NCBI GenBank assembly: GCA_965203985.1
Contig: CBDBDS010000005.1
Coordinates: 10,074-74,073 of the forward strand
Origin: Dehalococcoidia bacterium
Lineage (GTDB): Bacteria > Chloroflexota > Dehalococcoidia > Lucifugimonadales > UBA3495
Direction of reading: 5' to 3'
Length of the DNA stretch: 64,000 nt
Position numbers and translations under genes: made by a program. This document shows positions 5,924 to 40,418 of this stretch, piece by piece (positions within the stretch are counted from its first letter, which is position 1; the number at the start of each line of letters is the position of its first letter). The notes beneath the pieces were generated by a model. The model was given only the letters and a program-made list of their open reading frames with translations, was not told the DNA's origin and made no database searches.

Positions 5924-7123
5924 ATGACCCTCATCTTGACCAACGCCAACCTCATCGACTGTGTGCACGAGGGCGTGACGCCGGATGCCACCGTGGTAAT
6001 TGACGACGACCGCATCGTCGAGGTTGGCGCCGGCAGGGCCAGCGCATCCGGCGCAACGGTGATCGACCTGCGGGGTGCGTTCCTGATGCCCGGCCTGTGG
6101 GACGTGCACATCCATCCTGAGTATCCTGTCCCGCCCGGCACCACCGTGGCCCAGGAGACCGCCAATTTCGGCCGCGCCCTTTCCCTGGCGCTGACCGAGG
6201 GCGGCGTCACCGCCGTGCGCTGCGGCGGCGCGGCACACTTCATGGACGTGGCCTGGAAGCGCGCCTTCGACTCCGGCGACGTGGTCGGGCCTCGCGTTTT
6301 CGCCTCGGGCTACTTCCTGACCACCACCGGCGGCCACTTCCTCACCTCGGGACAGGCGAGGGAGTGCGACGGGCCCTACGGCTTCGTCCAGGCCATCCGC
6401 GAGCAGATCAAGAACGGCGTGGACCACATCAAGCTGAACCTCACCGGCGGCATCATGGGGCCGGACTGGGACCGCCACTGGCATTCATTCTTCCTGGAGG
6501 ATGAGCTAACCGCCGCCTTCGCCATCGCCCGCCAACGCGAGTTTCCGGTGATGGCCCACGCGGCCAACCCCGACGCCGTCAAGTCCGCCCTGTGCCTGGG
6601 CGCGCATACCGTCGAGCACGGCTACATCATGGACGAGGAGTGCATCGCCACCCTGGCCGAGTCGCCCACCTGGTACGTGCCCACCCTGGCCATCTCCCAC
6701 CTGACCGATGGGCAGGCCCAAAACGAATACGAAAGGCGCTGGCTGGCCCAGCGCAACATCGCCCAGGAGTTGCAGTGCCGCGCCGACGCTGCCTCCGACG
6801 AGCACGCCTACTGGTTCCGCCGCGCCCTGGACTCCGGGGCGAAGATGGCGCTGGGCTCGGACATCCGCCCCCTGCGCGAGGCCGCCCTGCTGGAGATGGG
6901 CCTGTGGGTTCGCGACGGCGCCACCACCTGGCAGACCCTGATCGCCGCCACCCGCAACGCCGCCGAGCTGTGTCTGGTCGGCGACCGGCTGGGTACCGTG
7001 GAGGCCGGCAAACTCGCCGACCTCATCGTAGTGGGCGCCAACCCGCTGGACGACATCAACAACCTGCGGCAGTTGCGGCTGGTGATTAAAGACGGGCGGG
7101 TAGTTTCGGATAAGCGGGGGTAA
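5924..7123 (+). CDS. metal-dependent amidohydrolase family protein
   Basis: IDL.G.FLMPGLWDVHIH, GVDHIK, AHA, EHG, G.VEAGKLADLIVV motifs; GGAGG RBS. Confidence 0.92.
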   Translation: MTLILTNANLIDCVHEGVTPDATVVIDDDRIVEVGAGRASASGATVIDLRGAFLMPGLWDVHIHPEYPVPPGTTVAQETANFGRALSLALTEGGVTAVRCGGAAHFMDVAWKRAFDSGDVVGPRVFASGYFLTTTGGHFLTSGQARECDGPYGFVQAIREQIKNGVDHIKLNLTGGIMGPDWDRHWHSFFLEDELTAAFAIARQREFPVMAHAANPDAVKSALCLGAHTVEHGYIMDEECIATLAESPTWYVPTLAISHLTDGQAQNEYERRWLAQRNIAQELQCRADAASDEHAYWFRRALDSGAKMALGSDIRPLREAALLEMGLWVRDGATTWQTLIAATRNAAELCLVGDRLGTVEAGKLADLIVVGANPLDDINNLRQLRLVIKDGRVVSDKRG

Positions 7124-7140
7124 AAACGAATATCCACCGA

Positions 7141-8301
7141 TTAGCCATCGGGGGATGCTACCTCAATTTGGTGACCGCTGGCTTCCCGGTATGCTTCATG
7201 TATAGCGGCCAAAATTGCATCCCAATCGTATTTCTTTTGGGATAATCGTCGGTAGCGAGCCTTTCGTGACGTATCTGCATCAATTATCTCATCAACTCGG
7301 TGACGTGAACCAGGAACCAAGATGTCCCCTGTAGGCCAAAACTTTATCTCACCCCCGCGCTCTTTACCGGCCGACAGAAGATTGTCGAACGATACCAAGT
7401 CCCACCCTTTCCCGGGTACCCGCAGTTCCAACCTGATGTGATCGTCTTTGCCGCTGATACGTGTAGTCAGGTCGGCGATTTTTAGTTGTTCCATCGCAAT
7501 TGCCGCATCATAGAGCCGCTGCAAGTCCGCGTGAAATCTTTCTGGCGAGCGTTTGATGCTTGCCTCGAAAGCTGCGGCACCCTGAACACGTTCCGATTTC
7601 CTCGAAGTCGCTGGCATTATTTCCTGTTCCCGCCGCCTAAGTCGAGTTTGGTACTCTGAAGCTTCAGGCAACGGGATTATCACGCTTGCTTCGATCAAGG
7701 TCTCATCATCGTTGCGAAGTGGCTGTAGCCGAACGCACTTGATTTCCTGGCCGGCTTCTCTTAGCCAGGAATCGTTGAGCCACATTACGCAAGTGGTAAG
7801 TTCTTTGCCAAAGTCCTCCGAAGCTAAAATAATTCGGGGTATACCGGTATGAATCACCGGGTCGTCTTGGTCATTGCTCGACAAATGTTCTCGGAGGCGG
7901 CTTTCGGCGTCGTCTGGCTCGTCGGTGTCCCATTCTTCATTGGCTCTCTTGTCTAGGTAGTCTTGGTAAGTGTCCACGGCTTGTTGGAATGTCATATTGG
8001 CGACCATTGCGGCATACCGGATGGCTTGCAAATCCATGTGGCCGCCGGTCTCCCCTCGTTTCAGCTCAACCACTACCAAGCGGCCTTCGGCGTCCAAGCC
8101 CAGTAAGTCGATTCGGCGGTTGGAATCTTCCCAGTTGCCGAATTCCTCAGCTATGATTAGCAGCCCGTCCTCCAGCACTTCTGGCCGGTCGCGCAGCATA
8201 CGTTGCAAGTCTGATCGTTCCAACACGCCCTGTTGGCCGAACGATGTTGGAGCAACTTCTATCAGTTCCTCCTTATTTCCTACCATTTTGTAGATAGCCA
8301 C
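7141..8301 (-). CDS. NucS/DUF91-like PD-(D/E)XK endonuclease with unassigned C-terminal domain
   Basis: RRIDLLGLDAEGRLVVVELKR..H..LQAIRYAAM motif; GTG start; lower GC than neighbours. Confidence 0.75.
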   Translation of the reverse strand: MAIYKMVGNKEELIEVAPTSFGQQGVLERSDLQRMLRDRPEVLEDGLLIIAEEFGNWEDSNRRIDLLGLDAEGRLVVVELKRGETGGHMDLQAIRYAAMVANMTFQQAVDTYQDYLDKRANEEWDTDEPDDAESRLREHLSSNDQDDPVIHTGIPRIILASEDFGKELTTCVMWLNDSWLREAGQEIKCVRLQPLRNDDETLIEASVIIPLPEASEYQTRLRRREQEIMPATSRKSERVQGAAAFEASIKRSPERFHADLQRLYDAAIAMEQLKIADLTTRISGKDDHIRLELRVPGKGWDLVSFDNLLSAGKERGGEIKFWPTGDILVPGSRHRVDEIIDADTSRKARYRRLSQKKYDWDAILAAIHEAYREASGHQIEVASPDG

Positions 8302-15274: not shown

Positions 15275-15892
15275 TTAGCGCTGTTTCCGTCGAGACCGGC
15301 GGTCGGGTCCGCGGAAGGGGCTTTCGATGAACTCGCCCACCTTCAGGGTGCCCAGGATATCGTTCCAGGCCGCCTTGGCCCGGTCGGCGTGATCATCCCA
15401 GTAGTCCATGGCGATCATCGCCAGCAGCGCCACCTGCGTTTTCATCGCGTAGCACAGCCGGGTGTGGGCTGGACGTTTTTCCAGCGGATCGATGAAATCC
15501 ATCTCCGCCCAGACGATGGTGGTTCCGTCCAGCCGCAGGGTGAGGGGATTCCCGACCCGGGTGGGAACGCGCTCGTCGGCGGCGAGGTTCTTCTTGAGCC
15601 AGTCGGCGATGGGCGGCTCGTCCCACGGTTGCAACTGAGACCAGTCCACGTCGGGCCGGGCGGCCGCCAGCGGCATCACGCGCACGTCCAGCCGGATGTC
15701 GGCGTCCACCTCCGGCTTCCGGTCCAAAAACACGAACGACCGGGAACCCTTGGGCATGTCCAGTATCCAGGTGTCCGGGACCTCAAAACGCACCGCGCCC
15801 TGGTTGGCCACGAAGACCCGGTTGCCGGGTTTCGCTGTCCACCCGTGGTTCTCGGGGAGGTTGAACTCGCGCCTTTCCCAATTACTGCTCAT
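15275..15892 (-). CDS. conserved hypothetical protein
   Basis: 205-aa ORF with typical codon bias (MSSNWERREFNLPENHGW...). Confidence 0.7.
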   Translation of the reverse strand: MSSNWERREFNLPENHGWTAKPGNRVFVANQGAVRFEVPDTWILDMPKGSRSFVFLDRKPEVDADIRLDVRVMPLAAARPDVDWSQLQPWDEPPIADWLKKNLAADERVPTRVGNPLTLRLDGTTIVWAEMDFIDPLEKRPAHTRLCYAMKTQVALLAMIAMDYWDDHADRAKAAWNDILGTLKVGEFIESPFRGPDRRSRRKQR

Positions 15893-16057
15893 TGCTGTCC
15901 GCCTGTTGTCGGGTTGGGCCAGTGTCGGCCGGGGTTCGCGGCGACACCGCAACGGCAAGTTTACTCAGAAATGGCGGGACTGCCAAACGGGAATGGCGCC
16001 GGTTTGACGGCGCGGATGAGCCTGGACCGGGGCGGTTTGCAGCGCGCCGGCCCAACA

Positions 16058-16504
16058 TCACCGGGAGCGGTTCGCGTATCCGTAACCGCCGAAGGCTCCG
16101 GCAATCAGCCCACCGATGCCGGATAGGATGTACCCCAGCAGGCCGCCCTCTTTATAGATGGTCAGAAAGACGATGATGCCGACTACGGCCAGGATGGCGA
16201 CGATAACTACCAGAACGGCCCAACGGCGTGTTTCTTTCCCGGCGTCGTGGTCGCGTTGGGATTGGCGATCGGCGTATTCGAGTTCTTTCCCTTGCAACTC
16301 GATGACGCCTGAAAACTGTTCTTCGGTCAGACGCACTTGGGTGAAGTTGGCCTGGCTGCGTATTTGAGCGACTCGCGATGCGGTGTTTTCCAGTATTTCT
16401 TGATAATCCGACCCGGCGTCGTCCTCGGATGATTGGTCGCCCGGTCGGGCGATGGGAGTTTGGTCCGAAGGTTGCGGTTTCGGCTCGTCTTGGTTTGCCG
16501 CCAC
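16058..16504 (-). CDS. small membrane protein, DUF2335-like
   Basis: Acidic N-terminus, helical middle, two C-terminal TM segments; GGAGG before GTG. Confidence 0.55.
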   Translation of the reverse strand: MAANQDEPKPQPSDQTPIARPGDQSSEDDAGSDYQEILENTASRVAQIRSQANFTQVRLTEEQFSGVIELQGKELEYADRQSQRDHDAGKETRRWAVLVVIVAILAVVGIIVFLTIYKEGGLLGYILSGIGGLIAGAFGGYGYANRSR

Positions 16505-16516
16505 GGTCCCCTCCAG

Positions 16517-16804
16517 CTATGTCCGCCTGATGTGGCGATGGGAAGCCTCTGTCAAGGTTCCCTTCTTTTTAGGCGAGAAAGCGTCGGCAACCATTTCACC
16601 GACTTCGTACTCCAACTTGGCAGCTATGAGCATCTTGACGAGGTTCGTTGCTTGTTTGGAGGTAATGCGACCCTGTTGCCAGTAAAGCGTGATCTCATCA
16701 AGCCCGTGCCGGTACAGTGTATCAACCGATCGCGGGGACGGGTTGATGGCTTCCAGCAAATCGTCCATCGTCAGGTGCTCAATGCCGTTTGTCGCCAGCG
16801 CCAT
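16517..16804 (-). CDS. hypothetical protein
   Basis: Short ORF (MALATNGIEH...) directly upstream of the DUF2335-like gene; start uncertain. Confidence 0.5.
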   Translation of the reverse strand: MALATNGIEHLTMDDLLEAINPSPRSVDTLYRHGLDEITLYWQQGRITSKQATNLVKMLIAAKLEYEVGEMVADAFSPKKKGTLTEASHRHIRRT

Positions 16805-16988
16805 GATTATGCTCCGTGCTCGATCAGGTCGAGCCACCGCCCGAATCTGTTTCAGTATAGCAAAGCCCAGCCGTGCTGCCGTTACCCCGCCGGCGAGAAT
16901 GGGAGCGGCGACTACGCAAGCGAGGATGTTACAATCGGATTATGCCTCGGCATTAGTGGCTGGAATGTTGCTGACGGAGTTGGCAATT

Positions 16989-17303
16989 GTGATTGATTTA
17001 CGCAAGCGCATAGTATCCGACCCCGAGATTTTGCGGGGCAGGCCGTGCGTAAAGGGAACCTGCATCTCGGTGGTTTTCGTCCTCTACCTGCTGGCCGGCG
17101 GGACGAAAGCAGAAGACATCGTGAAGCATTATCCCCACCTGACCCCCGAGGACATACACGCCTGTTTCCTGTATGCCAGCGAAAACCTGACAGGCGGAAC
17201 CTCCCAATGGAAGTTCGAGGGGAGCTTTCTGGACAGCGACGCATGGACGCTGGAGGAAGGAGAAGAGGCTCCGACGCTGGAAAGCCTGTTCCGGCATGGG
17301 TAA
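16989..17303 (+). CDS. DUF433 antitoxin-like protein
   Basis: RIVSDPEILRGRPCVKGT.ISV..VL..LAGG....I...YP.LT.EDI.AC; start may be 16965. Confidence 0.88.
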   Translation: MIDLRKRIVSDPEILRGRPCVKGTCISVVFVLYLLAGGTKAEDIVKHYPHLTPEDIHACFLYASENLTGGTSQWKFEGSFLDSDAWTLEEGEEAPTLESLFRHG

Positions 17304-17306
17304 GTC

Positions 17307-17520
17307 GTGGCGCAGTTCATCCTTGATGAAAATATGCCCCCAGCCATCGCAGTCTTGCTGAACGACCAGGGGCACGATGCGATAGCAGTATCCCAAATTG
17401 CGCCTCGTACTCCAGACCACGGCGTACTGGCTTGGGCAGTGCGCGAAAACCGGATACTGGCTACTTTCGATACCGATTTTGGCGACCTGATTTACGCGCG
17501 GGGATTGCCGGCCCCGCCCG
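17307..17520 (+). pseudogene. DUF5615 PIN-like toxin, truncated
   Basis: FILDENMP...HDA..RENRILATFD.DFG.L, then similarity is lost after LPAPP where the opposite-strand 17530 gene ends; the intact paralog 21541 continues GVILFR. Confidence 0.75.
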
Positions 17521-17529
17521 TTCAACCGG

Positions 17530-19677
17530 CTAGGCAGCGACCGCTTCGGTCGCTTCCGGGTCTAGGATTGCTGCCAACCTATCCAAGATTTGCCGCCATT
17601 CCCTTTCGACAAGTTCCTGCACCATCGCCTGAAAATCCCGGTCGCTGTTGGAAAACCAGCTTTTGTGGTACTGCGCCACGTCGTCGCGATACCCATACCC
17701 TTGCCCCCATCGGCTATCGCAGAGCCCCCAGAATTCCGAATCTGGCTTTAAGTGCTGGATATAGATTCTCTTTCCCAGCAACTCACTCCGCATCAAGAGC
17801 GTGTTGACACCGTCTTCCAGAATACGGCGAGATTGTCCTATCAGATCGAAAGCTGGTTTGAGTTCCTCATTTTCGAGGATAATCTCGATTCTCGCTCTGA
17901 AATTCTCCAGTTTGGGAACAACTGATCTGGCTGCCATCACTCGCGCACCGTAGCCCAAGTGGTGCGAGTAATTGAGGTTGTACCAGTCTCCTTGACGCCG
18001 GACGCTTGCTCTGACGGAACTCGCATATGCCCCATTGATGGCAGCGATAAGGTTTCCCTCCAAAGACCCGGTGAGGCCATCAATTTCCTGATTGTTCTCC
18101 AACCATCTCCACACTGGCCGAGCCGCTTGTTGATAGACTTCTTGCACCTGCGCCTCGGCAAAGTTTGCTACCAAGGCATTTGCGCCGTCTATCACTTCCT
18201 CCAGCCTGATGCGGTGCATATTCCTGACTCCCTGTATCAACCGCAACAGGAAATTGGTCGCTGGTTGAAGATCATCTTCGCGCGCGTTGAAGAATTCCAT
18301 GTCGGCATAGGGAAGGTTTTGGTGCTCCAATAATGACCTTGCATCCTCTCCCTTGAGTACGTATCCCTCGGCCGTGTCATCTGCTTTGTTTCCCTGGTCA
18401 TCTTTCACATCAGATGCCTCATCGTGACGGGGCAGCACCAAAACCGCCGCTTGGGTTCCCATATCAGCGAAACCACCATCTACCGCACGGCGCAACAGGC
18501 TTTGCACATCGGTTGAAGGCGCATCGGCGAAGGAAGAACAGAGCATCACTACCGCGCGGCGGTCGTTGAAATGAGCCTCCAAATCTGCACGCTCCGCTGT
18601 GGCGTAGATGCCCTTGGTGTCCACCAAGCAAACTGACAGATCTTCCTCACCAAGGATTTTCTCTGGCACTACGATGTCGATGCGCGTAGGCAGCGAAAAT
18701 TCGGGATGTCGGCCGTTGTTCAGCTGCTCAAACGTTTCTTTCAGCCAAAGCTTTTGTTCTTTCCCTGAAATTTCGGGATACCAAAGCCTACGTCCTGTCC
18801 GTTCTTGGGGACGTATCCGGGACAGAATTTCTCCGGTCAGAGTATTGGGATCGGGGAAATCCTTCGCCATCTCCGCGACCGGGTCAATACGCTGTCGCTT
18901 GCCGTCAGGCAATAGTATATTGCTACGAGTTAGACCGCTCATATTGCGAATCGCACGATCAATCTCAGTTGAGGTTCCTTGAGAGTCCTCCTCTCCCGCC
19001 ACTTGTTCCGGTTCTTCTCCCAATGGCTTGGTAAAGGAACTCGCGAATTCCAGAACTTCCCGGTGAAACTCGTCCGCCTTCATTGGTTCAACATAGAAGC
19101 CATAGCCACTACCCTGCATTACGCGAACCTCGCAGACAGTGGTTCCCCCACCAGCTGTTTCTAGTAATGGCTCGCTCTTGCCGTCTTTTGAAACCTCAAG
19201 CCCGGCTATTCGGCACAAAGCCGTGGTCTTCCCTACGCCTCTTTTTCCCACGAATGCGATATTGTGTTCTGTTTTGGAAACCAGTCTTGCCGCGTCCTTG
19301 AGTTCAGAACCAAATGTCTTCAGGCGCTCGGCAAACACGTTCTTGATGTCAGGACTTTCGGCAAGATCCGTGACTCTTTGCAGAGCCTGCTCCCCTTCCC
19401 AGAGAATTTGCTCGTCAGGATGACCGAGCGGAGGGCGATCCAAGTGCTGCCACACTCGTTCAACCGTTTCCTTGAAGTCCAGCGCTTCCTCGGTGCCGAT
19501 TGCGTCCAGAATGGAGTCCCGCTCTTCGGCAGACAAGGGGCGCTCGCCGGATTCAACACGGGACAGGACCGCGGGACTCCAGGTCACTTTGCTGGCGAGT
19601 TCATTTTGTTTGAGGCCGGCCTTCTCCCTGAGACGCGCCAGGTAGGCGCCGATTTCGGTGGCGGTCGCGGTGGTCAT
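17530..19677 (-). CDS. XRE-HTH fused to dynamin-like P-loop GTPase
   Basis: N-terminal LARLREKAGLKQNELA..SRVESGER; G1 GKRGVGKTT, G2 GTTVCEV, G3 VDTKG; long helical C-terminus; lower GC. Confidence 0.75.
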   Translation of the reverse strand: MTTATATEIGAYLARLREKAGLKQNELASKVTWSPAVLSRVESGERPLSAEERDSILDAIGTEEALDFKETVERVWQHLDRPPLGHPDEQILWEGEQALQRVTDLAESPDIKNVFAERLKTFGSELKDAARLVSKTEHNIAFVGKRGVGKTTALCRIAGLEVSKDGKSEPLLETAGGGTTVCEVRVMQGSGYGFYVEPMKADEFHREVLEFASSFTKPLGEEPEQVAGEEDSQGTSTEIDRAIRNMSGLTRSNILLPDGKRQRIDPVAEMAKDFPDPNTLTGEILSRIRPQERTGRRLWYPEISGKEQKLWLKETFEQLNNGRHPEFSLPTRIDIVVPEKILGEEDLSVCLVDTKGIYATAERADLEAHFNDRRAVVMLCSSFADAPSTDVQSLLRRAVDGGFADMGTQAAVLVLPRHDEASDVKDDQGNKADDTAEGYVLKGEDARSLLEHQNLPYADMEFFNAREDDLQPATNFLLRLIQGVRNMHRIRLEEVIDGANALVANFAEAQVQEVYQQAARPVWRWLENNQEIDGLTGSLEGNLIAAINGAYASSVRASVRRQGDWYNLNYSHHLGYGARVMAARSVVPKLENFRARIEIILENEELKPAFDLIGQSRRILEDGVNTLLMRSELLGKRIYIQHLKPDSEFWGLCDSRWGQGYGYRDDVAQYHKSWFSNSDRDFQAMVQELVEREWRQILDRLAAILDPEATEAVAA

Positions 19678-19719
19678 ATCACTGCTCTCCTTTCAGCACC
19701 GGCTCTCTGCGCCGGCTTG

Positions 19720-19788
19720 ATGCAGCAACGATATGCCAATTATCTGGTGTTTGTCAACATCGTTGCAGCAACGTTGCTGCAACGATGT
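19720..19788 (-). promoter_or_regulatory. sigma70-like promoter overlapped by GTTGC(A/T)GCAAC operator boxes and a perfect 32-bp palindrome
   Basis: Minus-strand TTGACA 19757-19752 and TATCGT 19733-19728; palindrome acatcgttgcagcaac|gttgctgcaacgatgt at 19757-19788; partial box at 19720-19732. Confidence 0.7.
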
Positions 19789-19802
19789 GTGGCCCTCTCG
19801 GG

Positions 19803-20873
19803 TCAATCACTCAGCAGCCGCACCACTTCATCGCCCACCTGCTGGGTGCCGGCGTTTCCGCCCAGGTCACCGGTGACGACCCTACGCTGGTTCAGTGTCT
19901 GCAGCGCAGCCGCGTTGACACGGTCGGCCGCGTCTGTTTCGCCCAGGTGATCCAGCATCATGGCCACCGCGAAGATCGTCGCCAGTGGGTTGGCCAGGCT
20001 CTTGCCGGTGATGTCGAAGGCCGCTCCGTGCACCGGCTCGAACATCGAGGGGAACGTCCCCTCCGGGTTGATGTTCGCGCTGGGCGCCAGGCCCATGCTG
20101 CCCGTGACCACGGCCGCGATGTCCGAAAGAATGTCCGCGAACAGGTTCGACGCTACGATGACGTCGAAGTCCTCCGGCCACCGCACCAGGTCCATGGCCG
20201 CCCGGTCCACCAGCAGCGACTCCGTCTGCACCTGGGGATACTCTGCGGCCACGTCCTCGAACACCTCGTCCCAGAACACCATGCTGAACGCCTGGGCGTT
20301 GGACTTGGTGACCGAGGTCACCTTGTTCTTGCCACCCCGACGGACGCTGTGCTCGAAGGCGGCCCGGATGATCCGCTCCGTGCCCCGCCGGGTGAACACG
20401 CCGCTCTGGATGACCGTCTCGTGGGCCGTGCCCGCGTACAGCCGGCCGCCCACGGGCGCGTACTCGCCTTCGGTGTTTTCGCGGAAGATCACCATGTCCA
20501 CGTCGCCGGCCGCTTTGCCGGCGATGGGCGACTCGACGCCGGGAAACAGCACCGCCGGCCGGACGCAGATGGCCTGGTCGAAGGCGCGGCGCATGGGCAG
20601 CAGCAGGCCCTGCAGCGTCACGTGGTCAGGGATGTTGGGATCGCCCACCGCGCCGAAGAGCACCGCGTCGCTGGCGGAAAGCTGCTCCAGCCCATCCTCG
20701 GGCATCATCCGACCGGTCTCGCGGTAATAGTCGCTGCCCCAGGGGTACTCGGTGGCGCGGAACGACAGGCCGTCCGTCTGCGCAGCCACCGCGTCCAGCA
20801 CCTTGCGCCCCTCGGCGATCACTTCTGGCCCGATGCCGTCGCCGCCGATGACGGCCAGGTTGTATTCGGCCAT
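19803..20873 (-). CDS. tartrate/D-malate dehydrogenase (decarboxylating), isocitrate/isopropylmalate DH family
   Basis: IGGDGIGPEV, FRENTEGEY, TKSNAQ, SNLFADILSD, SMFEPVHG.A.DI. Confidence 0.92.
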   Translation of the reverse strand: MAEYNLAVIGGDGIGPEVIAEGRKVLDAVAAQTDGLSFRATEYPWGSDYYRETGRMMPEDGLEQLSASDAVLFGAVGDPNIPDHVTLQGLLLPMRRAFDQAICVRPAVLFPGVESPIAGKAAGDVDMVIFRENTEGEYAPVGGRLYAGTAHETVIQSGVFTRRGTERIIRAAFEHSVRRGGKNKVTSVTKSNAQAFSMVFWDEVFEDVAAEYPQVQTESLLVDRAAMDLVRWPEDFDVIVASNLFADILSDIAAVVTGSMGLAPSANINPEGTFPSMFEPVHGAAFDITGKSLANPLATIFAVAMMLDHLGETDAADRVNAAALQTLNQRRVVTGDLGGNAGTQQVGDEVVRLLSD

Positions 20874-25508: not shown

Positions 25509-27785
25509 ATGTTACTGAGCGACACTGCATTCGAAAACGCCGTCAATGAAACGGCACGCCATCTTTGGCCGCAAGCAGCTTACTCCGGTTCGACCACATA
25601 CGGAGGGCGCGAACGCGACGGTGTCTTCGAAACAGACGAAATGGTACACATGATCGAAAGTACCACATCGCGGCGCAAAGAGAAAGCCGAGCAAGATACG
25701 AAAAAACTTGCTCGGCTGGCCAAGAACATGCAATCCCAGCACCCAATGAAAGGAGTGAAGGGATATTTTATAACGCGAGATGAACCCACGGCCGAGCAAC
25801 GAGATGCCGTAAGGCGATTCGGTGACGGGCTAGTTGTCAGCCTCTCGTATTCGCAATTCCGTCGTCAGATGATCGATGCTCAATCCTATCTAGATTGTCG
25901 GATAGATTACCCATTCGGCAGCATGTTTGATAGAGACACCGAATCGCGGACCGAAACCGCCGATTTGATATCTCCCCAATTCACCACGGAGAGAGGGGAT
26001 ATATTGCGTGTATCGAACATCATACAGAGCCTCGCCCAAGGAGATGGTTTTGTTTTGGTGGGAGATTATGGAGCTGGCAAGAGCACCGCTTTGCGCGAAG
26101 TGTTCGTAGCGTTACGATCGAAATATTTTTCCGAGAATCAGACCGGCCGCTTCCCAGTTCACTTGAACCTAAGAGACCACCACGGGCAAACCAACCCTGC
26201 TGAAGCCCTGGAACGCCATGCTCGGAACGTAGGGTTTCAGTCCCCGACTCACTTAGTAAGGGCATGGCACGCGGGTTATCTTACGTTGATCCTAGACGGG
26301 TTCGATGAATTCGCGACGGTAGGTTGGTCAGGCCAAGCTAAACTGCTGCGGGACATCAGGTACACGTCGATGGAGTTAATCCGCAACTTCATGCGCGGTC
26401 CATCGGACACGGGTATCATGATTGCGGGTCGCCAACACTACTTTGACAGCTACTCGGAGCTGTCGCGCAGTCTCGGGTTGCGGCAGCAGACCACACGTCT
26501 TTATATCAATGACTTTAACGAAGATCAGATTCGAGAGTTCCTTTCGAAAAAAGGGTGGAGTGAGGGTATCCCGGCGTGGCTCCCATCTAGACCTTTATTG
26601 CTTGGTTATTTGTTCTCAAGAGGCATGCTGGACCAAGTGATGACGGTAGATCATGGCTCTAGTCCTGCTGCCGGGTGGAACGTTTTTCTCGAACTCACAG
26701 CGCAGAGAGAAGCGGAAATCGAGGCTGGCGTTGACGGAACCGCAGTGCGGCAGATCGTTGAGAACCTGGCGACCAAAGCCCGCAGCAAAAACGATGGCAT
26801 GAGTTCACTGTCGCAAGACGACATTTTGGGTTCATTTCAAAGCGTCTGCGGATTTTCACCCGACGACCGAGGTTTGCTATTGCTTCAAAGACTACCCGGC
26901 TTGGGGGCATCGAGCAGTGACGACGGTTCCCGGGATTTCATAGACGCAGATTTGGTGGATGCCGCCCGGGCGGGGGATGTTTCTCGGTTCGTCGAGGATC
27001 CCTTTACTTTCCATCTCGAGAACCCGAATGCGTGGCAAATTACCCTTGGCCAACTCGGCATAGAGCTTGCTACTTTGCGTTGTCATCAAATGGCGTTCAA
27101 CCAAGGCAAACTGCGGACTGCGGTCCAGCAAGCGGGTAGAGACGGTGAGCAAGGTGCTCTCTGCATGGACCTAGTGCAAGTCTCTAAGGAAATGGGTTTC
27201 GGTTTCACTGGGCAACCAATCACCGTGAGAAATATAATGGTTGCAGACGCCTCATTCGGAGATGATTCTTTAGATTTTTCGAGAATTTCATTCCATGATT
27301 GCCTGTTTCAGCGGTTGGAAATTAGCGGGTCGGCCGATGCGTCACTACTCCCGCATTTTTACGAAAGTTATGTTGGCACCCTTGATGGGCGAGTTTCCAA
27401 AGGGGACTTGCCTCCAAACATATTCGACAGTAAATGTGTTTTCGATTCATTCGGGGACAGTTCGCAAAATACGGCTGCCATATTGGCTTTGCCATTGTCG
27501 AACGGGGCCAAGGTGCTGTTGACAGTTTTGAAAAAACTGTACCTCCAACCAGGGGCTGGCAGAAAGCAATCAGCACTTTTTAGGGGTCTTGACCATCGCT
27601 CCCGGGCTTTGGTGCCGGATGTGTTGCAATTGTTAGTCGCGGAAGGTCTTACGGTCCGGTCTACAGTTGGGGAAGAACCGGTTTGGCTCCCTGTTCGGGA
27701 TGAGGGTGTCCGGGTGCGACGATTAGTGTCATCCCCAATAGGAAGCAACGACCGCTTGCTGAGCGCGGCAAACTCGTTGCGTTGA
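25509..27785 (+). CDS. nuclease-like N-terminus fused to NACHT/STAND NTPase (putative defence protein)
   Basis: RERDGVF..HMIEST..K (PD-(D/E)XK-like); Walker A GDYGAGKST; Walker B LILDGFDE; low GC. Confidence 0.75.
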   Translation: MLLSDTAFENAVNETARHLWPQAAYSGSTTYGGRERDGVFETDEMVHMIESTTSRRKEKAEQDTKKLARLAKNMQSQHPMKGVKGYFITRDEPTAEQRDAVRRFGDGLVVSLSYSQFRRQMIDAQSYLDCRIDYPFGSMFDRDTESRTETADLISPQFTTERGDILRVSNIIQSLAQGDGFVLVGDYGAGKSTALREVFVALRSKYFSENQTGRFPVHLNLRDHHGQTNPAEALERHARNVGFQSPTHLVRAWHAGYLTLILDGFDEFATVGWSGQAKLLRDIRYTSMELIRNFMRGPSDTGIMIAGRQHYFDSYSELSRSLGLRQQTTRLYINDFNEDQIREFLSKKGWSEGIPAWLPSRPLLLGYLFSRGMLDQVMTVDHGSSPAAGWNVFLELTAQREAEIEAGVDGTAVRQIVENLATKARSKNDGMSSLSQDDILGSFQSVCGFSPDDRGLLLLQRLPGLGASSSDDGSRDFIDADLVDAARAGDVSRFVEDPFTFHLENPNAWQITLGQLGIELATLRCHQMAFNQGKLRTAVQQAGRDGEQGALCMDLVQVSKEMGFGFTGQPITVRNIMVADASFGDDSLDFSRISFHDCLFQRLEISGSADASLLPHFYESYVGTLDGRVSKGDLPPNIFDSKCVFDSFGDSSQNTAAILALPLSNGAKVLLTVLKKLYLQPGAGRKQSALFRGLDHRSRALVPDVLQLLVAEGLTVRSTVGEEPVWLPVRDEGVRVRRLVSSPIGSNDRLLSAANSLR

Positions 27786-39687: not shown

Positions 39688-39828
39688 GTTGATTTGTCGG
39701 CTGGGTGGACTACAAGCAGAACGCCGCGGACGACCTGCACATGTGGCGCTTCCCATCAAATTCTTCAAGCGCTTCGACGCCTGACGCCCGGTGATACAAT
39801 TGCCACATGCTGCGGCGAGAGCAGTGCA

Positions 39829-39856
39829 GTAGGGGCGAATGATCATTCGCCCCTAC
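39829..39856. repeat. GTAG-type REP palindrome
   Basis: gtaggggcgaatgatcattcgcccctac. Confidence 0.85.
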
Positions 39857-39884
39857 TGCACTTGCAACACGCGGGGAAGATGAT

Positions 39885-40418
39885 ATGGCTGCCGACAATC
39901 TGAAGAGCCTGCGGGAAAGAGCTTGGGCCATCTACAACGCCGATATCAAGCATCTGGTGGAACCGGAGCACAAGAACAAGTACCTGGTGTTGAACGTGGA
40001 CACCGGGGATTATGAAATCGACGCCCGCCTGGGGCAGGCCAGCGCTCGAATGCTGGAGCGGTTTCAGATACCTAGGGACGAAAAACCGCCCTTCTTTGCC
40101 TTCCGCATCGGACACCCGACGACTTTCGACAAGCGCCCCCGGATCAAAGGGACGCCGATCACGCCCGAAGAGTGGCCAAACAGCTTGCCCGGACGTGCCC
40201 ATGCTATTTACGACGCCAAAATCAAGCATCTGGTGGAGCCGGAGCACCATGGCAAGTACCTAGTGATGCACATGGAAACCCACGAGTACGAGATTGACAA
40301 CAGCCTGGCCCAGGCCATCCTGCGGATGCTGGAACGGTTCCAGATACCGAAAGGCGAAAAGCCGCCCTTCTTTGGATTCCGTGTCGGCTACCCAACCGCA
40401 CACGACGGACGGGCATAG
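39885..40418 (+). CDS. tandem double DUF5678-like protein
   Basis: Two ~80-aa units: RA.AIY.A.IKHLVEPEH..KYLV....T..YEID...A..RMLERFQIP..EKPPFF.FR.G.PT. Confidence 0.75.
   Translation: MAADNLKSLRERAWAIYNADIKHLVEPEHKNKYLVLNVDTGDYEIDARLGQASARMLERFQIPRDEKPPFFAFRIGHPTTFDKRPRIKGTPITPEEWPNSLPGRAHAIYDAKIKHLVEPEHHGKYLVMHMETHEYEIDNSLAQAILRMLERFQIPKGEKPPFFGFRVGYPTAHDGRA

Follow-up and report, generated by a model that had tools for sequence, protein, structure and literature searches.

Proteins of the dynamin superfamily are known as membrane machines and, as with Mx, as antiviral machines, and the DynA protein of Bacillus subtilis combines two dynamin heads in one membrane-binding polypeptide. Self-control of a different kind is known from PutA, BirA and the PspA/PspF pair, in which a working protein, or an effector together with its regulator, feeds back on its own promoter and engagement of the target removes repression. 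To our knowledge, no dynamin has been described that carries a sequence-specific DNA-binding domain or that represses its own promoter. Eleos (LeoA/LeoBC) is an anti-phage system in which the P-loop is required, and 60% of its occurrences are co-localised with defence systems (bioRxiv 10.1101/2022.05.11.491447). The locus considered here lies in a stretch of 64,000 nucleotides from a Dehalococcoidia bacterium (contig CBDBDS010000005.1, assembly GCA_965203985.1), referred to below as the window, and encodes on the minus strand (P0001, 17530..19677) a protein of 715 amino acids (aa) in which an XRE-type helix–turn–helix (HTH) is fused to a predicted dynamin-like nucleoside triphosphatase (NTPase), termed HTH-dynamin in what follows. 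Sequence comparison strongly supports the view that an operator, seated on the gene's own core promoter, travels with this gene across phyla.

A predicted operator on the gene's own promoter

As the preliminary description of the locus had claimed, a perfect 32-bp palindrome (19757..19788; 16 + 16 nt, no spacer, with the halves ACATCGTTGCAGCAAC and GTTGCTGCAACGATGT) stands upstream of the gene, where it is read as an operator array composed of a central consensus dyad and two weaker flanking dyads at +/-11 bp. The chance expectation of such a palindrome in 64 kb is about 1e-5, and by length it ranks second among the perfect palindromes of the window. Its central operator, GCAGCAACGTTGCTGC (19765..19780), is a top-scoring match to the family motif described below, with a position weight matrix (PWM) score of 13.7 that equals the highest in the 4.4-Mb genome. 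When up to one mismatch is allowed, ATCGTTGCWGCA is matched five times at the locus, compared to 0.7 matches expected in the whole window. Three boxes of the form GTTGC(A/T)GCAAC had been proposed to lie on the promoter; the third of these, Box 3 (ATCGTTGCTGCA, 19721..19732, minus strand), is real and corresponds to the AACGTTGCTGCAT(AAT) box that is widely conserved at the -10 of proteobacterial homologues, but the register of the boxes had to be corrected, since the one conserved in the family is an AACGTT-centred dyad, GCAAC-GTTGC (19765-19780), and not GTTGC(A/T)GCAAC. 

The promoter itself, also proposed earlier, was recovered as the sole sigma-70-like match within 17300-20000 (TTGACA-18-TATCGT, 19757..19728, 10/12), its -35 hexamer TTGACA (19752..19757, minus strand) being separated by an 18-nt spacer from the -10 hexamer TATCGT (19728..19733, minus strand). 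The palindrome and the -35 share one base, which is the last of the former and the first of the latter, and Box 3 overlaps both the -10 and the predicted start site; the promoter position thus means that the palindrome abuts the -35, while Box 3 covers the -10 and the start site. Two related loci, L005 and L013, keep the layout as TTGACA/TTTACA ... TATCGT. The longest perfect palindrome of the window is a separate, intergenic element of 40 bp (AGTGCAGTAGGGGCGAATGA and TCATTCGCCCCTACTGCACT, 39823-39862), which stands just before an ORF (open reading frame) starting at 39885 and is unrelated in sequence to the HTH-dynamin operator.

A comparison of the 120-160 nt 5' of each start codon in 80 related loci from species-representative genomes, spanning Dehalococcoidia, Latescibacterota, Alpha-, Beta-, Gamma- and Deltaproteobacteria, Acidobacteriota, Actinomycetota and KSB1, revealed one to three copies of the AACGTT-centred dyad upstream of nearly all HTH-bearing homologues, typically in the forms GAAACGTTGCTGCAT(AAT) at the -10, GCAACGTTGC and AGAAACGTTTCT. 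The consensus is a palindromic PWM, nnAG(A/C)AACGTT(T/G)CTnn, of 14 bits. It had been asked in advance whether homologues would also carry upstream palindromes: at least one PWM site was found in 68 of the 72 upstream regions of HTH-bearing homologues (94%), compared to 0.76% of 2763 control windows and 0.75% of 533 regions 5' of other ORFs, and in none of six HTH-less homologues, with the caveat, which counts against our interpretation, that the matrix was scored on its own training regions. Plain AACGTT and k-mer counts escape this circularity: of the 72 upstream regions, 46 contain AACGTT and 39 the 10-mer box, the frequencies in random 120-nt windows drawn from these loci being 1.5% and 0.06%, respectively, and AACGTT is seen in one of 72 downstream regions. 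In the closest relatives, L005 and L013, the palindrome differs in sequence and its dyad symmetry is kept, the two halves having changed in step (GTCAACAACGTTTCAGCAAT and ATTGCTGAAACGTTGTTGAC, 40 bp; ATCGTTTCAGCAAT-GTTGCTGAAACGAT, 28 bp).

Neighbouring sites lie 11 nt apart in 14 cases, 21-23 nt in 21 and 31-33 nt in 10; these distances are whole helical turns and, like the symmetrical change of the palindromes, point to a bound operator. Relative to the +1 predicted from the best sigma-70 promoter, the site centres cluster at -20 (within the spacer), -41, -52, -62 and 0, and a site overlaps the -35 to +1 interval in 35 of the 41 loci with a recognisable promoter. Conservation of the operator, its spacing and its overlap with the promoter together give strong support to negative autoregulation through the predicted operator, which we regard as likely. 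Within the 4.4-Mb genome of the bacterium itself, clustered intergenic PWM sites are found only at the HTH-dynamin promoter, as would be expected if the protein were a dedicated autorepressor. A wider regulon was considered and set aside: CGTTGCWGCAACG has four further sites in the genome, isolated and mostly in ORFs, and the 18 other high-scoring PWM sites are single and, where checked, mostly in ORFs, so that both groups were taken as chance occurrences.

A dynamin-like fold behind the HTH

The length of 715 aa, the HTH and the long helical tail given in the preliminary description are borne out by the ORF, by Pfam and by a structural model in which the C-terminal 250 aa form long helices. 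The XRE/Cro-C1 HTH domain (aa 8-66; 19480..19656, minus strand) matches Pfam HTH_31 with E 1.7e-12 and HTH_3 with E 2e-7, both above the gathering scores, and is the sole significant Pfam match of the protein. In a profile search of PDB sequences this domain matches C.BclI, ClgR and lambda-repressor-like proteins, and the same search returned HTH proteins only and no dynamin. The recognition helix, (W/L)SxAVLSR(V/I)ESGER, is near-invariant across phyla, and the two loci in which it is divergent, L084 and L079, are both without a good operator site.

In the confident AlphaFold2 (AF2) model, for which the family alignment served as input (pLDDT 87.4, pTM 0.85), the HTH is followed by a pair of long helices at aa 89-134, then by the NTPase domain, of alpha/beta type and about 330 aa in length, and last by the long helices of the C-terminal bundle. 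When this model was compared with PDB structures by Foldseek, the top 37 matches were almost all from the dynamin superfamily, plus one EHD ATPase, with 550-840 columns aligned; the best were IniA (E 3.8e-9) and SynDLP (E 2e-8), about 700 columns align with BDLP, IniA and SynDLP, and further matches included Campylobacter DLP1/2, BDLP (TMq 0.33), mitofusins, Fzo1, Drp1, Mgm1, EHD and also LeoA (E 7.7e-3). The TM-scores of the matches are low, 0.2-0.34, as is expected of hinged multi-domain proteins. In a library of viral structures the best matches were mainly giant-virus dynamins. On the strength of the model, the protein is very probably a dynamin-like NTPase, its activity being predicted. 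The dynamin-like GTPase call of the preliminary description thus stood at the level of fold and fell at the level of sequence, where there is neither a Dynamin_N match nor a G4 motif, and where Pfam and NCBIfam offered no link to dynamin past P-loop noise.

The large NTPase (G) domain extends over approximately aa 135-465 (18283..19275, minus strand), as delimited by AF2 secondary structure and the G1/G3 residues. Of the G1, G2 and G3 motifs that had been proposed, G1 and G3 hold across 63 homologues: the Walker A P-loop FVGKRGVGKTT (aa 142-152; 19222..19254, minus strand) has G144, G147, G149 and K150 invariant, and the Walker B DxxG motif, DTKG (aa 353-356; 18610..18621, minus strand), has D353, T354 and G356 invariant. 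For the G2 switch-I threonine there are two invariant candidates, T180 in GGGxTVCEV and T235 in GTSxEI. The P-loop (aa 142-151) gave below-threshold matches only, to the MMR_HSR1, SRP54, FlhF and ABC families. GGGxTVCEV, GTSxEIxRxIRNMS and VDTKGI are further motifs that are invariant among the 63 sequences.

The C-terminal helical bundle (aa 470-715; 17533..18270, minus strand), recognised from the AF2 helices and from Foldseek, consists of helices at aa 470-504, 513-528, 570-601, 604-643, 663-676 and 682-705, and in the model it joins with the N-terminal helices at aa 89-134 to form a neck- or trunk-like part. Two loops in the helical part are invariant, ASSxRASxRRxGxW (553-565) and WGxGxGYR (657-664). 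The protein is apparently a divergent, soluble, single-headed dynamin-like NTPase.

A one-gene cassette in a genus hotspot

The operator, promoter, 5' untranslated region (UTR) and HTH-dynamin gene form a self-contained cassette (17527..19789, minus strand), whose borders are given by homology and GC content, the unit measuring 2.26 kb from the outer palindrome edge to the stop codon. In locus L006, which has a different context beside a PLD-SNF2 helicase, homology covers 19789..17527 of the window only; in L005 and L013, which share the site next to the Iso_dh gene, homology ends at 17528 and 17531; and in same-genus relatives without the gene the flank homology ends at 19799-19819. GC content is 52-55% in the cassette compared to 63-69% in the flanks. 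These observations strongly support the reading of the unit as a horizontally moving one-gene cassette, as far as sequence comparison can show. Between promoter and gene lie a 5'-UTR hairpin, GCCGGC-GCAGAGA-GCCGGT (19698..19716, minus strand), and, 3' of it, the Shine–Dalgarno sequence AAGGAG (19687-19692, minus strand), both read from the sequence; the hairpin is kept, with changes, in L005, L013 and L006.

The conserved left border of the insertion site is the Iso_dh (isocitrate/isopropylmalate dehydrogenase) gene (19803..20873, minus strand; Pfam E 5e-96), which shows 85-97% identity to its counterparts in 25 further genomes of the genus. At the other end stands a 3'-truncated DUF5615 (PIN-like) gene (17307..17520, plus strand) that covers only profile positions 2-69 of 110 and whose reading frame runs past the truncation onto the antisense strand of the cassette. 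It is preceded by a DUF433 gene (about 17009-17303, plus strand; domain about 17009-17180, E 1.9e-19), the two forming a toxin–antitoxin-type pair of which DUF5615 is cut where the cassette ends; the homology to the relative G014 stops at 17520.

A variable hotspot of the genus (15895-19812) lies between Iso_dh and a gene for a 227-aa protein (15275-15958). The hotspot is empty in G005, G013 and G004, where Iso_dh is directly followed by a homologue of window 15894-15281. Elsewhere it holds other cargo, namely a type IIG restriction–modification (RM) enzyme in G019 (PADLOC E 9e-290), a 1028-aa methyltransferase-containing protein followed by the DUF5615/DUF433 pair in G014, and different genes again in G009. 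No operator motif was found at the hotspot in the same-genus relatives without the cassette that were compared. Among the sampled species of the genus, the HTH form is present in one of 25, and an HTH-less form with 44% identity in two others. Two small ORFs at 16058-16837 (minus strand), of 106 aa and of 148 aa, the latter ending in a hydrophobic, Gly-rich tail, have no Pfam or PADLOC match; G014 shares both flanks without 16058-16837, and this segment is therefore taken as further hotspot cargo.

Family spread and domain variants

The family comprises at least 727 homologues of about 710-720 aa, with 48-98% identity among those listed and 48-75% over the full length among the best 120, and a profile search of 1.84 billion representatives gave 519 clusters at 50% identity (E<1e-30). 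At least 245 loci are found in species-representative genomes, across many phyla and on plasmids, and the members named in RefSeq are annotated only as 'helix-turn-helix transcriptional regulator'. Nineteen plasmids carry a member, including an IncU conjugative Citrobacter plasmid and a 19.9-kb Sphingopyxis plasmid, on which DUF262, RelE/HigA, RM methylases and a helicase come after the gene. Cultivated carriers include Roseateles, Paraburkholderia and Rhodoblastus. No phage-encoded homologue was present in 50,697 phage records.

The N-terminal HTH is exchangeable in this family. A TIR domain (E about 4e-19) replaces it in two clusters, P0248 and P0265, as in the 768-aa member encoded at 706-3012 of L089, whose TIR domain is matched with E 4e-19; in P0241 the HTH has given way to a SAVED-like domain (E 9e-7). 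In L085-L088 a SAVED-like member of 921 aa (gene 2076-4841 of L085) is translationally coupled to genes for an AAA_21/DUF2813 (OLD/Gabija-type) ATPase and a 218-aa protein, possibly a three-gene defence operon. HTH-less versions starting near aa 66-75 are seen in L022, L040, L045, L070, L072, L081, G009 and G011, of which the L072 copy (5983-7926), broken into two ORFs, is a probable pseudogene. In the HTH-less Dehalococcoidia versions, neither an operator nor a separate HTH gene nearby was found. C-terminal additions also occur, viz. a sigma-70 region 4 in P0141, a Di19-type zinc finger in P0227 and about 190 extra residues in P0160.

Genomic context

All-against-all clustering of 808 ORFs from 79 loci revealed no conserved neighbour, the largest cluster covering six loci, which marks the gene as a single-gene unit, in agreement with what had been proposed from this one locus. 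The recurrent neighbours are type I HsdM (6 loci), MmeI-type IIG RM enzymes (4 loci), a PLD-SNF2 helicase (3 loci), GmrSD plus Schlafen (3 loci), HipA (4 loci), tyrosine integrases (7 loci), a Mu-type transposase (3 loci) and the VirD4 coupling protein (3 loci). Recurrent RM, GmrSD and PLD-SNF2 neighbours lie within +/-6 kb at a minimum of 15 of the 79 loci, and about 9% of the immediate neighbours match PADLOC models.

The hotspot, the plasmid copies, the RM and GmrSD neighbours and the TIR and SAVED-like variants all point to a role in conflict or defence. The case is circumstantial, and we lean only slightly towards such a role for the family. About 6 kb from the cassette, a low-GC (50-54%) gene on the plus strand (25509-27785) encodes a 758-aa NACHT protein (Pfam E 8.6e-9); it has no PADLOC match and is a candidate NLR-like defence gene.

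Proposed mechanism and competing explanations

The explanation we prefer, with moderate confidence, is that of a mobile one-gene cassette for a soluble, self-repressing HTH-dynamin-like NTPase that is derepressed by its own assembly and acts against phages or mobile elements. Dimers or oligomers of the protein would bind the phased dyads cooperatively, repress their own promoter and so hold the protein at a low set level. Binding and hydrolysis of NTP by the dynamin-like core would then allow self-assembly on a target, and assembly would pull the protein off the operator, such that use of the effector raises its own synthesis, a logic like that of PutA or PspA/PspF contained within one polypeptide. 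This titration feedback, in which assembly removes the repressor from DNA and raises expression, is put forward only tentatively, as something rather less than an even prospect. The likeliest biological function would be an anti-phage or anti-mobile-element role, because of the genomic context and the TIR and SAVED-like variants. Since there is no membrane anchor, DNA, nucleoprotein or phage structures (as for Mx) are as open as targets as membranes are.

A stronger version, which we consider unlikely, sees in the protein a one-polypeptide immune module that senses, responds and amplifies, with the dynamin resting on its own operator as a phased oligomer. Infection or stress would bring about NTP-driven assembly on a target, freeing the promoter and boosting synthesis; the target could be foreign DNA, nucleoprotein or, as with Mx, a phage structure and not a membrane, there being no membrane anchor, and in the TIR- and SAVED-like versions this scaffold would be connected to other inputs and outputs. 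If this reading is true, the family would represent a new modular branch of dynamin-based bacterial immunity.

A number of observations tell against the preferred explanation as a whole. Dynamin_N (PF00350) finds no match in the protein even at E<=1, and a six-frame PF00350 search of the bacterium's own genome misses the HTH-dynamin gene, with no Dynamin_N gene above the cut-off. The G4 motif (N/T)(K/R)xD is likewise not seen, there being no NKxD or TKxD in the family, which after the strand at 410-415 has L-P-R-x-x-E, with position 419 variable (D/G/E/N); the nucleotide may therefore be GTP or ATP. Neither a transmembrane segment nor a hydrophobic paddle is present (maximum 19-aa Kyte-Doolittle value 0.95; per-homologue maxima in the 63 homologues with a median of 1.23 and a highest value of 1.56), so that a membrane role is unsupported, peripheral membrane contact through the conserved W/Y/R/G loops being still conceivable. 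With regard to defence, recognisable defence genes are near about 20% of loci (within +/-6 kb, a lower bound from recurrent clusters), compared to 60% for Eleos; many of the Dehalococcoidia copies lie among housekeeping genes; and PADLOC returned for the protein only HTH-type matches and a marginal one to the candidate model PDC-M11A (E 0.04). Conservation is also unusually high, at about 40-50% identity across phyla including the putative tip loops, which is atypical of an arms-race sensor.

One alternative is a non-immune dynamin of envelope stress or membrane repair, similar to IniA or DynA, in which the HTH would provide only homeostatic self-regulation and membrane damage would recruit the protein and derepress the gene. 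The best structural matches, IniA, SynDLP, BDLP and DLP1/2, are membrane-remodelling proteins, several Dehalococcoidia copies stand among housekeeping genes and the protein is highly conserved. Against this, a paddle or transmembrane segment is missing, the spread is patchy (one in 25 species of the genus), the gene sits in a hotspot common to RM enzymes and on plasmids, and TIR and SAVED-like domains occur at the N-terminus of its variants; we regard the membrane-repair explanation as improbable. That the protein is primarily a transcription factor with other target genes, its dynamin-like part being a nucleotide-sensing or oligomerising module of the MalT/STAND type, would agree with the RefSeq naming of members as transcriptional regulators and with a phased, multi-site operator array. 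However, the clustered intergenic sites of the genome are confined to the gene's own promoter, there is no conserved neighbour as a potential target, and HTH-less, TIR- and SAVED-like versions exist, from which it follows that the core functions without DNA binding; we regard this alternative as very unlikely.

The palindrome could also be viewed as something other than an operator, namely as the hairpin terminator of Iso_dh or as a recombination site at the cassette end, given that the Iso_dh stop codon lies 15 nt before it and that it stands at the cassette border (19789). Yet no T-run follows the hairpin, and the terminator reading was rejected both by a terminator scan, which does not call the palindrome, and by the cassette-less relatives, which have no such element after Iso_dh. 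Moreover, the dyad turns up again within promoters, at -20 and -41, in different phyla and unrelated surroundings and never without the HTH, and a non-operator reading is hardly credible.

Should the preferred explanation be correct, the gene would be a compact, portable candidate for defence or stress response that brings its own feedback control with it, and AG(A/C)AACGTT(T/G)CT together with the helix WSPAVLSRVESGER would constitute a defined operator–repressor pair, usable as a genetic part across phyla. With homologues in Citrobacter, namely the plasmid-borne WP_211136444.1 at locus L090, and in Mangrovibacter, at locus L025, it would also offer a tractable system for asking what bacterial dynamins sense, and the TIR- and SAVED-like variants tie the dynamin-like scaffold to known immune signalling. 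The HTH-dynamin cassette is thus a promising candidate for a new immune or stress system consisting of one gene.

Comparison with known systems

The preliminary description had stated that the architecture was not known to it as described, and this agrees with what was found: RefSeq gives HTH-regulator names only, the core is modelled by neither PADLOC nor Pfam, and a full-text search of the literature found no description of an HTH-dynamin fusion. In fold, the closest proteins are BDLP of Nostoc punctiforme, IniA of Mycobacterium, SynDLP and Campylobacter DLP1/2, in which a large NTPase domain likewise stands between N- and C-terminal helices that build a long bundle (Foldseek probability 1.0, E 4e-9 to 1e-6) and in which G1 and G3 are conserved; sequence identity to them is only 9-13%. 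HTH-dynamin differs from these proteins in having no Dynamin_N match, canonical G4 or paddle, in being solitary and not paired, and in possessing an N-terminal HTH with a cognate predicted operator.

Eleos and DynA are likewise dynamin-like NTPases, and are tied to phage defence. Eleos, however, is a two-gene operon of consecutive dynamins, whereas HTH-dynamin is a single one-headed gene, and no second dynamin-like protein was found beside it in 79 loci. Compared to Eleos, the PADLOC match is also to the HTH only, the association with defence islands appears weaker, and the predicted self-regulation is an added feature.

In its proposed regulatory logic, HTH-dynamin would resemble PutA, BirA and PspA/PspF, with which it has no homology; the DNA-binding domain of PutA is a ribbon–helix–helix, and in the Psp system regulator and effector are separate proteins. 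The DNA-binding part itself is of the same HTH type as that of controller C proteins, such as C.BclI and C.AhdI, and of phage repressors of the cI/Cro type, whose palindromic sites likewise overlap their own promoters with a spacing of integral helical turns. Those proteins are of about 70-110 aa and serve regulation only, whereas in HTH-dynamin the HTH makes up about 10% of a putative mechanochemical protein of 715 aa.

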